31,030 nt of DNA from Candidatus Altarchaeum sp. (GCA_018260615.1 JAGWDQ010000105.1:1-31030), one strand, 5' to 3'. Positions 9,770-15,359 are shown, counted from the first letter of the stretch. The notes: generated by a model not told the origin, from the sequence alone. Translations and numbers: made by a program.

Positions 9770-10042
9770 ATGAAGTCATCATCACCTGCAAAAATTATAT
9801 TCACCTCATTTTTCAAACGATTTTCAAATTGTAGAGATTTGAAAATTTCCGAACGAAGTGAGGTAAAGTTTGAAAAATCCACGAACGATATCAAAAATGC
9901 CTGAAACATTTTTGAATATCCTAAAAACCTTGAAGGTTTTTACGATAGTGAGCGGACTCCGTTCGGAGATTTCAAAATGCTCGGAGAACATGCAGCCGTC
10001 TATGGAAATCCCGTAGTTGCGGCAACGGTAAATTTAAGAACT
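9770..10042 (+). pseudogene. mvk: Interrupted 5' fragment (codons 1-32) of mevalonate kinase
   Basis: 9770-9801 reads MKSSSPAKII. After a 178-bp insertion, 9980-10042 reads LGEHAAVYGNPVVAATVNLRT, colinear with 12559-12654. Confidence 0.9.
9802..9979. repeat. Composite palindromic repeat element inserted in the mvk fragment
   Basis: Colinear with about 224-341 inside the first MITE (CTCATTTTTCAAACGATTTTCAAAT...GTGAGCGG...TTCGGAGATTTCAAAAT), plus an extra 57-bp palindrome cassette. Confidence 0.85.
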
Positions 10043-10118
10043 TTTAATATGTCTGCAAGTCCGTGTTTATTGAATATCCTCTCTTTTTATAACTTCCGGG
10101 TTGCTATAATAAATTTCG

Positions 10119-10321
10119 GGTACTCATCCCTTTAAATTGGGATAATTATTTTGTGAGAGATTTTTTAAAAATCTGCTTAAAAATTATATTTTTCAAGCAA
10201 GGTAAATTATTATGTTTTTAACCTCACTCCGTTCGGATATTTACTCATTTCATTCGTAAATGACAAAAATTGTGAGTTTATAGACGAACATTAATTATCC
10301 CAATTTTAGTGGGTCAGCACC
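10119..10321. mobile_element. MITE (203 bp) of a second family
   Basis: 30-bp TIRs at 10119-10148 and 10292-10321 match at 24/30. An exact 8-bp direct repeat AAATTTCG lies at 10111-10118 and 10322-10329. It contains a module A copy at 10221-10241 (minus). Confidence 0.85.
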
Positions 10322-10401
10322 AAATTTCGTATAAATTAAGGGATAATTTAACAAAATATTTTAAACATTTGTATTTCTATGACTAATTGTTTTATTTAAA
10401 A

Positions 10402-12310
10402 ATGGATAACGAGGAAAGCAACATCAATAATTTTTTTGACTCACGGGTTGTATCATGCAACGAAACATATAATTTGGTAGGAGCAGGAAAAATTTTACAT
10501 ACAACTAATAAAAGGCATGTAATACTGACAAATGATTCCAGCCAAATACTCGGAGAAATTTCGGCAGAGGATATTTCTTTTCCAAAATTATTGCAAAGAA
10601 GAAAATTTAGCGAACTTAAACTTATGCAGGCAAAGTCAATAACAAAGGACTTGTGGTGTGTTACAAAAGATTGTCTCATGTATTATGTTGTTGAACATTT
10701 TGTCAATAAAAATACAAAATATGTTTGTGTTGTAAACAACAAAAAAGAAAAAAATATCGTTGGAGAGTATGAACTGAATTCCCTTTTGAAATATTTGTGG
10801 GAATGGATAAACAGAGAAATTTATAATAAACAACACGAAAAATGCAATGAAATTAAGGAAATATTAAATAAAAAATTAACTGATATAAATGCAAATACCG
10901 GCATATCGGCAATAGGACATATATTAAAAAAAGTCAAAACATGCAGAAGTGAAATACCCATAATGAAAATGGGAATGCTTATGAACTTTGGTGATGGCGG
11001 ATATGTGGGCGTGAATGAAAATGACACCCTGTCGGGATTTGTAAATTTTGACAAAATGAATATATTCAGTATTCTTTTTGAAGCAAAAAAACGAAACATT
11101 TTAATGCATCACCTAAAGGTAAAGGATGTTACTAACAATAAAATTTTTGTAGGGGATGAAAATTTAAAAACAGGTGAGGGTATTGACTTGTTGGTAAAGA
11201 AAGGCGTTGAAGTTTTCTTAACGGATGAAAAAAATACTTCTTATGAACGATTATGTAAAGAAGGAATCGTGAAATTTTTGGGAAAAATTTATTTATCTTC
11301 GGTTATAGAACCATCCGGCTATTGGAAATATGAAAACATTTTTAAAATTTCGTCAAAGGCAATAAATATCCGTAAAAAAGCGAGAGCAGCATCTGAAATT
11401 AAAAACAGTGACAGGATAAATTCAAAAAAGACAATCCCGAAATTTGCGAAAGATATAATGACTGTGAATCCGATAACCTGTGGAAATACAGAAACACTTG
11501 TGGAAATCGGAAATATTATGGCTGAAAATAATTTTAATCATATTATAATAACTAATGAAAAAAATATTCCTGTAAGTATCGTTTCGGCAGAAGATATAAC
11601 GATGTATAAAATGATTATGGGTGAAGGTATTGAAGGAATAGAAAATACAAAAATATGTGAAATTATGAATAAAGAACCGTGGTGTGCTGCCACACAAACG
11701 CCTTTTATAAATTTGATGCATAAAATGGCTGCAGATAAGATCGGATGTTTGCCGGTTATAAATAATTACGGGGAAATAAATGGAATTGTAACAAAGACAG
11801 ATATATTTGAAGGAGTAAAACGACTTATAGAAAATTCAAAAGAAATAAAGGAAAAAATATATTCTGTCAAAGCCCGTGAAATTATGAATAACGATATTTC
11901 ATTATGTTTTGAAGACGATTCCGCTATTAAAAAAGACATGGAAATGGCAAAATATAAAATTAAATACTTATTAGTTATTGACAGAAATACAAAAAAAAAT
12001 TACAGGAGTTGTCTCTCTTAATGATTTTATTTTAAGCAGAATGAGAAAAGAAAAAGATATATTTAAACCAGTGACAAGTGTAAAAATAAAAGAAGTTATG
12101 AATGATAATATAGCAACTGTTGACGAGGACTATTCTCTTATGGATGTAATTAACATAATGACAGAAAAACATTTATCAGTTGTCCCTGTTCTTGAAAAAG
12201 GCGTCATCAAAGGACAGGCAGAGTGGTGGATGGTCTTTGAAAAATTGGTTCAGATAATATCGCCGTTTTATGCAAAAATGCAGGTCTCTGCATCAAAAAT
12301 TTTAAAATAA
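10402..12310 (+). pseudogene. Multi-CBS-domain protein, frameshifted in an A9 run (or phase-variable/slippage-read CDS)
   Basis: ORFs 10387-12021 and 11978-12310 are consecutive CBS-like segments (AKDIMTVNPIT, IGCLPVINNYGEINGIVTKTDI, VKAREIM, IKEVMNDNIAT). Removing one A from 11991-11999 fuses them into about 635 aa. Confidence 0.75.
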
Positions 12311-12349
12311 AGGTAAAATGAAATCCTCAGCACCTGCAAAAATAATATT
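12295..12349 (+). pseudogene. mvk: Duplicated mvk leader and first 10 codons
   Basis: 55-bp direct repeat of 12536-12590 with 3 mismatches, including the ATG (12318). It is truncated at codon 11 by module A. Confidence 0.9.
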
Positions 12350-12508
12350 CACCTCACTCCGTTCGGAGATTTTAAAATCTTTGAGATTTTAAAATGCTTC
12401 AAGCATTTTTGACCATATCAAAACCTACAAGGTTTTAACTATTCTAAAAATCTCAAAGATTTTTACAATCTCAAAAATCTACAAGATTTTTGTGACGCTC
12501 ACTATCGT
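12350..12508. repeat. Composite repeat: module A, five CT-NNN-AG palindromes and a GCTCACTATCGT half-module
   Basis: CACCTCACTCCGTTCGGAGATTTT, then palindromes at 12369-12395, 12391-12409, 12420-12436, 12445-12465 and 12472-12492, all with 3-nt spacers. Confidence 0.85.
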
Positions 12509-12558
12509 CCGTGTAAAACAATACATAAATTTGGTAAAAATTTTAAAATGAAAGTAAA

Positions 12559-13999: not shown

Positions 14000-14011
14000 A
14001 ATAAATTCAAA

Positions 14012-14269
14012 ATGAAAAAAATAAAACACATAAAATTTAGTGAAAAGGACTTACTAGAGTTGGAAAGAAGCAGAGAAGATGAAAAGTGGCTGAACTCAGT
14101 GCCAATAACGACCTTAAAGAAACATGCGGGAGAATATATTGCAGTTAAAAATAAAAAGATTATTGCACATTCTGCATCCCTGAAAGATGTGTATCAAAAG
14201 ATTGATGAATTAGGAGTTAACAGAACTCTTATTAGCAAAATAGAAGAAGAGGGACTGGTTGTTTATTGA
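14012..14269 (+). CDS. Small DUF5678-like protein
   Basis: 85 aa. KKHAGEYIAVKNKKIIAHSASLKDVY fits the Y/H-x-G-E-W/Y-I/V-A pattern of this family. It lies 8 nt upstream of an aspartic protease. Confidence 0.65.
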   Translation: MKKIKHIKFSEKDLLELERSREDEKWLNSVPITTLKKHAGEYIAVKNKKIIAHSASLKDVYQKIDELGVNRTLISKIEEEGLVVY

Positions 14270-14277
14270 ATTAGAAA

Positions 14278-14706
14278 ATGAGATTTGCAAAGGAATGGTT
14301 TAGAGTGATCACACCTTTGGGGAAAATTGTTTATCGTCCGGTTTTGGTTCTGGAGATAAAAGAAAAAACCAAAATTGAAGAATATCGCTTTATCGTGGAT
14401 AGCGGCGCTGATATTTCACTAATGTCAAAATATGTTGCAAACAGAATAGGAATTGACTGGGAGAAAGGGAAGAAAACCGAACTGAGGGGAATTTCACAGA
14501 AGAAAGAATGTCTTGTTGAAGGTAGAATCCACGAAATCAATGTTATAGTTCCGGATATAAAGTTGGAGATTCAAATTCCAATATGCTTTGTGGATGGAAA
14601 TGCACCTTTTTTACTTGGAAGAGAGGGATTCTTTGATTATTTCAGAGTAATTTTTGAAAAAGTTAAGTTAAGAACAGTATTTGAATTAACTGAAAATGAA
14701 AAATGA
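14278..14706 (+). CDS. Retropepsin-like (clan AA) aspartic protease
   Basis: FIVDSGADISLM catalytic motif and C-terminal FLLGRE-x-FF-x-x-F-x-V-x-F motif; single domain, 142 aa. Confidence 0.8.
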   Translation: MRFAKEWFRVITPLGKIVYRPVLVLEIKEKTKIEEYRFIVDSGADISLMSKYVANRIGIDWEKGKKTELRGISQKKECLVEGRIHEINVIVPDIKLEIQIPICFVDGNAPFLLGREGFFDYFRVIFEKVKLRTVFELTENEK

Positions 14707-14806
14707 TGTTTATTATCTATTTTGTTTTGGTTTAGATTTAATTAATTTAGAAAAAATTACCCTGTTTTCATATGCGAGATAACACAGATAAAAATTTTTG
14801 TTGAAA

Positions 14807-14852
14807 TCACCGCACTTCGTTTGGAGATTTGCGAACTAATTCGTTCGCAAAT
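14807..14852 (-). repeat. Module A copy plus a perfect 10-bp palindrome at the left edge of the mvk 3' copy
   Basis: TCACCGCACTTCGTTTGGAGATTT (14807-14830) and ATTTGCGAAC-taattc-GTTCGCAAAT (14827-14852). Confidence 0.75.
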
Positions 14853-14855
14853 GCA

Positions 14856-15359
14856 GAAAAGACTGAACTGACGGATGAGTTTGATGTAGCAATCGTTGAT
14901 ACGGGAATAACGATGGATACGGGAAATGTCGTTATGGATGTATTTCATCTGAAAGAGAGAAATGAAGAAATTTTTGCCGAATGGTTAAACACGATGAAAT
15001 TTTTGCCGGCCTGATGAATATAAATCACGGAATGCTTTATGCGATTGGCGTTTCATCCGTTGAACTGGAAAAAGCGGTCTTTGAACTGAGGAAATTTTAT
15101 AAAGGTGCAAAATTATGCGGGAAAGGAAGGGGAGGAATTGCAATCGGATTAAAAAAATCAGAAGAATACTCACACAAAGCCACAAAGTCACCAGATTACA
15201 GAATATAACTCCTTTGTGTTTCTGTGTCTTGGTGTGAGGGACCAAAAATAAAACGAACTTTCCTGTACGATAAAAAAAATTGGTAATCAAAAACCTGTTA
15301 ATTTAAATTTTATTGACGCAAAAATATGTAATGAAGGGGTTCGTCTTGAAAGGGAATGA
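14856..15359 (+). pseudogene. mvk: 3' half of mevalonate kinase with a 49-bp deletion and a 121-bp insertion
   Basis: Colinear with 13048-13479. The deletion is between GAAAATT microhomologies (13188-13194 and 13237-13243 of the intact gene). Module B is inserted at the Leu-Lys-Lys codons. It ends at its own TGA (15357-15359). Confidence 0.92.
15159..15280 (+). repeat. Repeat module B (8-bp-periodic long hairpin plus conserved tail)
   Basis: CTCACACAAAGCCACAAAGTCAC...CTTTGTGT...GTGTGAG...AATAAAACGAACTTTCCTGTACGATAAAAAA. Homologous to 23617-23716 and 30904-30980 (minus). Confidence 0.88.

Follow-up and report, generated by a model that had tools for sequence, protein, structure and literature searches.

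Partial copies of mevalonate kinase beside an intact gene in Candidatus Altarchaeum: probable scars of stacked, integrase-free insertions with long target duplication

Candidatus Altarchaeum is an uncultivated groundwater archaeon from a widespread, subsurface, carbon-fixing lineage. In one of its contigs (GCA_018260615.1, JAGWDQ010000105.1; 31,030 nucleotides, hereafter the window), an intact gene for mevalonate kinase (mvk) stands among three partial copies of itself, with other genes and repeat elements in between. A first-pass annotation of the sequence had reported that the window contains no integrase or transposase, and we likewise found none among its open reading frames (ORFs) scanned against Pfam and NCBIfam. 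How, then, did this arrangement arise, and is it peculiar to mvk? We consider it probable that the locus records three stacked insertions made without an integrase, of the type called ‘insertion with long target duplication’, which were later joined by ordinary MITEs (miniature inverted-repeat transposable elements). Such insertion is a general gene-gain route of the lineage and not a property of mvk.

The window is an entire contig of a 2.23-Mb metagenome-assembled genome (MAG; here G000) that comprises 148 contigs and is 87% complete. It was annotated by ORF listing, repeat finding and direct reading; it contains no N, against 17 N runs in the whole genome, and an Rfam scan of it gave no match. 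From left to right the locus reads as follows, elements without an assigned strand being marked as such.

7057-9744, plus strand: UvrD-type helicase with a PD-(D/E)XK nuclease domain (Pfam), left backbone gene
9770-9801, plus strand: frag1a, mvk nt 1-32, in its ancestral place 25 nt beyond the stop of the helicase
9802-9978, no strand: el1, a 177-nt module-A-type repeat element between mvk nt 32 and 33
9979-10043, plus strand: frag1b, mvk nt 33-97; 60/65 positions match the intact gene
10044-12294, plus strand: cargo block X, 2.25 kb, with a 210-nt MITE and a multi-CBS gene (Pfam CBS)
about 10112-10324, no strand: MITE-210, with terminal inverted repeats and an 8-bp target duplication AAATTTCG
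12295-12349, plus strand: stub2, 55 nt, mvk -24 to +32; 52/55 positions match 12536-12590
12350-12535, no strand: el2, a 186-nt insert of module A and small hairpin modules that separates stub2 from the intact gene
12536-13486, plus strand: intact mvk with the duplicated 24 nt upstream and 7 nt downstream; coding sequence 12559-13479, 306 aa
13487-14879, plus strand: cargo block Z, 1.39 kb, with a 453-nt MITE, a DUF5678 gene, a retropepsin-like aspartyl protease gene and module A (Pfam)
13549-14001, no strand: MITE-453, with terminal inverted repeats and a 9-bp target duplication AATAAATTC
14012-14269, plus strand: DUF5678 gene of cargo block Z (Pfam)
14278-14706, plus strand: retropepsin-like aspartyl protease gene of cargo block Z (Pfam)
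14880-15366, plus strand: frag3, decayed mvk nt 514-921 and 7 nt past the stop; start approximate
15158-15270, no strand: MITE-113, with an 8-bp target duplication TAAAAAAA; more than 100 copies
15392-15870, plus strand: right backbone, nuoI with its conserved upstream region; nuoI is the leading gene of the nuoI-CBS-nuoJKLM block

The central copy is a full-length gene, matching the TIGR00549 equivalog with 218.8 bits (cut-off 163) over profile positions 1-276 of 276 and Pfam GHMP_kinases_N. All three partial copies (frag1, stub2 and frag3) lie on the same strand as this gene, and since blastn found no further mvk pieces in the 2.23-Mb genome, their clustering at the locus is not due to chance. 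The direct repeats measure 55 nt (stub2), 97 nt (frag1) and about 410-490 nt (frag3), and the corresponding inserts 186 nt, 2.25 kb and 1.39 kb, all below 20 kb. The homology of frag1b to mvk ends sharply at 10043, and el2 consists of a repeated part up to about 12499 followed by 36 unique nt. In frag3, a 49-nt deletion at about 15005 accompanies the 113-nt MITE. The first-pass annotation had described an intact mvk and fragments with cargo in between, and all of these pieces are present with small corrections of their coordinates; the 3′ half that it placed at 14856-15359 exists and ends at 15366, but only 21/36 positions of 14849-14880 match mvk, so that secure homology starts at about 14880. 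It had also called the gene essential, to which a second gene passing TIGR00549, on contig C80 (195.8 bits), is a caveat. Within C80:25300-27418, this mevalonate-kinase-family gene is preceded at a distance of 785 nt by a 5′ fragment of its own, which is 351 nt long and 94% identical, and two small ORFs lie in between.

The availability of related assemblies, retrieved with the mvk protein among Candidatus Altarchaeum and Altiarchaeales, allowed us to ask what the locus looks like elsewhere. We compared three genomes of the same genus (G001, G002 and G003) and, for mvk, the assemblies Ga0210009 and CCXY01 and a more distant QGLW contig. Five other lineages carry one mvk each and no fragments, the orthologs being 85% identical in G003 and 81% in G001. 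In G001, TiaS and the helicase precede mvk, from which a 57-nt spacer separates the latter; this arrangement represents the left side in its empty form, and frag1 occupies the same position as mvk at this helicase-mvk junction. Downstream, mvk is followed by nuoI in G000 and by the primase large subunit in G001, whereas G003, Ga0210009 and the QGLW contig have a Trp/Tyr-tRNA synthetase at this place and CCXY01 has aCPSF1, the G000 homolog of which lies beyond the nuo block at 21552-23507. G001, G002 and G003 all conserve the block from nuoI to nuoM together with about 100 nt upstream, and none of them has a piece of mvk at that place. The analysis bears out the proposal of the first-pass annotation that cargo was repeatedly integrated beside mvk, with partial duplication of the gene and one copy kept intact.

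We observed the same structure far beyond mvk. In a blastn self-comparison of G000, low-copy repeat pairs lying within 10 kb on one contig were direct in 277 cases and inverted in 2. Restricting the count to pairs with at least 85% identity that involve an ORF of at least 150 aa left 66 pairs: 24 have a 5′ piece upstream of the intact gene and 22 a 3′ piece downstream, 4 break this rule, and the remainder concern internal gene segments. The 46 rule-obeying pairs, three of which are suspect owing to N runs in or beside the gap, correspond to 43 anchor genes. The shortest gap measures 49 nt and the largest 8.4 kb; longer gaps contain one to three whole genes that are unique in the genome, and the outer repeat border lies 1-24 nt from the start codon or a few nt beyond the stop. 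Across the genome, no shared motif was seen where cargo meets its flanks. By strict count there are three anchor genes with two fragments each, against 0.45 expected, and mvk, one gene on C60 and one on C104 are further multiply hit anchors, so that sites are hit repeatedly and mvk is one of several. The idea that mvk is a special landing pad is thus not upheld, since at least 43 other genes bear the same scar, which also occurs in a MAG of the same genus. There, a 227-kb sample of G001 contained 17 pairs at 85% identity or more, all direct; the resulting rate of 75 per Mb compares with 65 in G000 and with 17.5 in the background control, 400 kb of one closed genome from another family. One clear G001 scar lies beside its own nuoI, where a 453-aa gene has its upstream region and first 275 nt duplicated at a distance of 5.2 kb.

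Individual scars can be followed in some detail. At the nuoI side of G001 (C27, L053), the copies at 5794-6587 and 11826-12453 are 99% and 97% identical, a MITE lies in the first copy and genes occupy the 5.2-kb gap. A second scar in the window itself (25744-28424, minus strand) involves a glycosyltransferase gene of family 2 (25744-26466). Its first 326 nt have a second copy at 28105-28424, which forms a fragment ORF of 95 aa and is 94% identical. The copies are separated by a methyltransferase gene and by a gene for 312 aa without assigned function, and a DNA methylase gene is found nearby (29530-30471).

The differences between copies are informative about where the second copy came from. 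Between frag1 and the intact gene 10 of 97 sites differ, 8 of them at codon position 3, and between frag1 and the G003 ortholog 8 sites differ; frag1 is no nearer to the intact gene than to other species, and its first part (frag1a) shares 27/32 positions with the intact gene but 30/32 with the G003 ortholog. Six changes are unique to the intact branch and two to frag1. Across the genome, in 43 pairs without N, 205 of 371 differences (0.55) fall at codon position 3. This share is 0.78 (21/27) in pairs of at least 97% identity and then 0.57 and 0.52 in older pairs, with 0.61 in an ortholog benchmark, whereas in-situ duplication followed by neutral decay of the fragment would be expected to give 0.41 under a rough model of our own (p = 2e-8 against). 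Judged from these alignments, the bias favours copies that would have started as two functional alleles and decayed afterwards, and it likewise favours a Campbell-like recombination with a donor allele over an in-situ duplication of the target. In its core, frag3 agrees with the intact gene at 271/277 positions, while its identity to the orthologs is 72-89%, indicating that the event behind it was recent, drew on a very close donor or was homogenised by gene conversion. The states A6, C9 and G13 are common to stub2 and the intact gene, only G13 being unique to that allele, which places the insertion of el2 within that allele’s lineage.

We propose that the donor would have been DNA of a related strain in which the cargo lay beside that strain’s own allele of the gene end, the allele serving as homology anchor. 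Integration would have proceeded by a single crossover of a circularised fragment, or by one homologous end and one illegitimate joint, so that the donor’s allele and the resident one would end up as neighbouring direct repeats. A first event (X) would have placed the 2.25-kb block with the multi-CBS gene in front of mvk and stranded the old nt 1-97 beside the helicase; another (Y) would have set the 186-nt repeat element between two copies of mvk -24 to +32; and a third (Z) would have brought the DUF5678/aspartyl-protease pair behind mvk, with a spare copy of the last ~410 nt left before nuoI. Only repeats that span the start or the stop codon would leave the gene intact, and this survival filter would account for the rule of 5′ pieces upstream and 3′ pieces downstream. 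The process would act genome-wide, with conserved housekeeping genes such as mvk making good anchors. The first-pass annotation had left the choice between a Campbell-type crossover and a repeat-guided insertion; given the position-3 counts at frag1 and across the genome, the former, homology-anchored route fits best. A repeat-guided insertion is not upheld.

Several observations weigh against recombination with a donor allele. The position-3 bias would be produced equally well if intact genes had later been replaced by alleles from other strains, and the expectation with which we compared it is only as good as our rough model. In-situ duplication or gene conversion would also yield a frag3 that is ~98% identical to the intact gene. 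In none of the relatives does mvk adjoin nuoI, so that event Z has no empty-site control, and neither donor arrangement, a CBS gene beside mvk or mvk beside a DUF5678 gene, was found in the other assemblies. Both el1 and el2 start directly after mvk nt 32, a coincidence that stacked donor insertions leave unexplained. Finally, the elements of one small hairpin family lie nearly always between long duplications, which hints at an element-driven process.

This last observation leads to the foremost competitor, a long target duplication made in situ, which we regard as rather unlikely. Staggered cuts 50-600 nt apart would be joined to incoming DNA and filled in, duplicating the resident target, so that both copies would be the same resident allele; the activity might be tied to the small hairpin or to module-A elements. 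In its favour, abutting duplications of 45-181 nt were found at 15/16 copies of the hairpin family, against 2/21 and 1/10 for two ordinary MITEs and 13/300 for random windows, some pairs in the genome are 100% identical, and both the shared allele states of stub2 and the close match of the frag3 core would follow directly. It does not predict a position-3 bias, let alone one that is strongest in the youngest pairs, as decay of a dead copy would give none, nor a frag1 to which the intact gene is no nearer than orthologs from other species are. Selection acting on random cuts is also insufficient to place the border 1-24 nt from the start or just past the stop, and the window contains no candidate gene for the enzyme. 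We are similarly doubtful of the wider proposal that Altiarchaeum possesses a dedicated, integrase-free insertion process, perhaps tied to hairpin or module-A elements, that copies 50-600 nt of target at gene ends and constitutes the main route of gene gain.

The small hairpin elements are themselves distinctive. They are about 55-60 nt long, consist of a T-run, a loop and two A-runs, and lie in gene orientation between two copies of a gene start or end; at such loci the second copy begins 1-24 nt before the ATG. Examples are C20:4996-5243, C139:13517-13841, C44:54079-54278, C18:12122-12339 and C42:6980-7179.

Could mvk instead have undergone local tandem duplications that then decayed, the cargo arriving later by unrelated events? 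The overwhelmingly direct orientation of local repeats is what tandem duplication gives, and some pairs in the genome are indeed plain tandem paralogs, but we judge this history quite improbable for the locus. What follows each second copy does not repeat the gap sequence, in dozens of loci the cargo would need to have landed exactly at a copy border, frag1 is as distant from the intact gene as orthologs of different species are from each other, and adjacent copies without cargo were seen in none of the five lineages.

An assembly artefact, in which mvk alleles of co-existing strains were strung into one contig, is a natural concern in a repeat-rich MAG of 148 contigs, 23% of whose bases match elsewhere in the genome in the blastn self-comparison, all the more as the differences between copies look allelic, as strain variants would, and N runs lie between or beside the copies in 3/46 pairs. 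We nevertheless think it very unlikely here. The fragment borders join mvk to unique non-mvk sequence, a kind of junction that a graph assembler cannot invent, the window is free of N, and frag3 carries both its deletion and a MITE with a target duplication of its own. Moreover, the target duplications match on both sides of all three MITEs, which means that the flanks were contiguous before each MITE arrived and that the joins across these repeats are genuine. The same pattern also occurs in an independent assembly (G001).

Least credible of all is that mvk is a dedicated attachment site whose cargo is moved by a site-specific recombinase encoded elsewhere: three hits at mvk (against 0.003 genes with at least three expected under a uniform model), its varying neighbours between lineages and module A at or near three fragment borders speak for it, but the repeats differ in position and length and have no common core, the same scar occurs at 43 unrelated genes, module A has 175 copies that mostly lack flanking duplications, and the 87%-complete genome contains a single tyrosine recombinase.

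The census behind the last point found in G000 one tyrosine recombinase, on another contig, and nine TnpB-type genes, while a reverse transcriptase, an IS66 transposase and a Y1 transposase were looked for and not found in the 87%-complete MAG. Dedicated integrases therefore cannot explain scars in their dozens, and we rejected retrotransposition on the first of these absences and mobilisation by an IS200/IS605 Y1 or IS66 transposase on the other two. A single 4.8-kb insertion splitting a resident mvk was set aside because frag1 is as distant as an ortholog and the frag3 core about 98% identical to the intact gene. An integron-like cassette array was discarded as well, there being no integrase and no common border element other than module A, a dispersed repeat of 175 copies, and so was a site-specific integrative element, given the lack of an integrase in the 31-kb contig and of a common core among the repeats -24 to +32, 1 to 97 and 514 to the end. 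The repeats at other genes, moreover, share nothing with those at mvk.

The three MITEs are of the ordinary kind. MITE-453 has three further full copies at 99.8-100% identity and MITE-210 about 17 copies at 98%; no terminal inverted repeats were seen in MITE-113. All three show the near-identical copies and short target duplication by which MITEs are classically recognised. The nested elements (453, 210 and 113 nt) thus resemble classical MITE or insertion sequence transposition in their 8-9 bp target duplications, in contrast to the cargo blocks and el2, which are flanked by repeats of 55 to about 490 nt, much longer than the short duplications of fixed size left by transposases.

Module A consists of a core, CTCACTTCGTTCGGAGATTT, followed by a variable small hairpin, and has 175 copies in the genome, some of them in tandem arrays. 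The first-pass annotation had noted it at 9802, 12350 and 14807; it is present at these positions (the last spanning 14807-14836) and also at 9838-9864 (inverted), 9950-9978 and 10225. It is not a general mark of junctions, as high-copy repeats are absent from most junctions genome-wide and el2-type (module-A) elements have flanking duplications in 5/29 copies. The mvk sequence at the nt 32 insertion point, ACTCGGAGA, is similar to the module sequence ACTCCGTTCGGAGA; no clear target motif emerged from the flanks of the 175 copies. An intergenic twin of el1 at C60:7642-7816 is 96.6% identical and has the same left end, and as el1 also lacks a surrounding target duplication, it simply landed in the dead fragment. 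Five module-A units stand in tandem at C15:4906-5150 with a 48-nt period, and an apparent tRNA gene contains a unit, after ...GTGATCTAGTGGTTATAAC, both in C59 (minus strand, about 6215) and in C84 (about 2935); such a unit may have been inserted into the tRNA or be intron-like. Among high-copy repeats lying no more than 15 kb apart on one contig, same orientation also prevails, with 457 direct and 67 inverted pairs.

As to the cargo, the multi-CBS gene comprises two frames, 10387-12021 (544 aa) and 11978-12310 (110 aa), that overlap by 44 nt and may be a single frameshifted gene; the reading frame of this gene stops within the mvk upstream segment that was duplicated. No full-length ortholog was found in G001-G003, where matches were at the level of CBS domains only. 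The protease family of block Z has 6 copies in G000 and 0-1 in relatives: none in G001 or G002, and one weak, stop-interrupted match in G003. The viral contigs that were scanned with the protease and the CBS protein held no relatives, and PADLOC gave no match for the cargo flanking mvk. A second pair of a small protein and a retropepsin-like protease lies in the window at 20891-21491 (minus strand), between nuoM and aCPSF1, its protease matching the candidate defence family PDC-M08B in PADLOC (4e-13). In CCXY01, mvk directly adjoins aCPSF1, without the protease pair and without the nuo block.

How does the locus compare with known systems? In Campbell-type integration a circular DNA enters by a single homologous crossover, a principle used as insertion-duplication for gene targeting in bacteria and archaea. 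The locus resembles it in having a direct repeat of the homologous segment on both sides and in that the gene stays intact only if the segment includes a gene end; it departs from the textbook case in that no circular intermediate, plasmid or donor genome was seen here. Tyrosine-recombinase islands and prophages likewise leave a partial duplicate of the target gene end flanking the insert and keep the gene intact, but they have an integrase and a fixed att core, both of which are missing at mvk, where the inserts are only 0.2-2.3 kb. The closest match is insertion with long (and variable) target duplication (Nobusato et al. 2000, as cited in Furuta, Abe and Kobayashi 2010, PMC2853133). Furuta et al. 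recognised it by direct repeats of more than 30 bp and variable length, an insert below 20 kb without mobility genes, and alignment of the repeat to a single-copy empty site in a relative, the repeat often spanning a start or stop codon (PMC2853133). Their cases were bacterial restriction-modification genes, a few per genome; no archaeal case passed their screen, and the mechanism of the duplication was left open (PMC2853133). The mvk locus agrees in its repeats above 30 bp of variable length, which here too take in a start or stop of translation, its inserts below 20 kb and the lack of a linked integrase or transposase. As to the empty site, the 5′ side has a counterpart in the single-copy helicase-mvk site of G001, and for the 3′ side no relative has mvk beside nuoI. 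The locus differs in its archaeal host and in its cargo, which includes no restriction or modification genes but a bare repeat element, a CBS protein and a DUF5678/protease pair, while the genome as a whole differs in having dozens of sites, several of them stacked at one gene. The locus is therefore a variant of this pattern that lies outside its restriction-modification-specific set. Literature on Altiarchaeum with MITEs or duplications gave no description of the pattern in the genus. The route is not an undescribed one, as the first-pass annotation had suggested it could be, since it matches this published class, albeit one known from bacterial restriction-modification genes (PMC2853133).

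If our reading holds, most accessory genes of this archaeon would enter the chromosome without integrases, anchored on conserved gene ends, and each spare gene end would be a datable scar that documents directly how an uncultivated lineage has gained genes. The scars extend to archaea, and to dozens of sites per genome, a pattern formerly seen for a few bacterial restriction-modification genes. On a practical matter, short ‘genes’ annotated beside core genes in these MAGs are to be treated as fossils. Furthermore, the third-position bias offers a testable handle on whether incoming DNA carries its own copy of the target.

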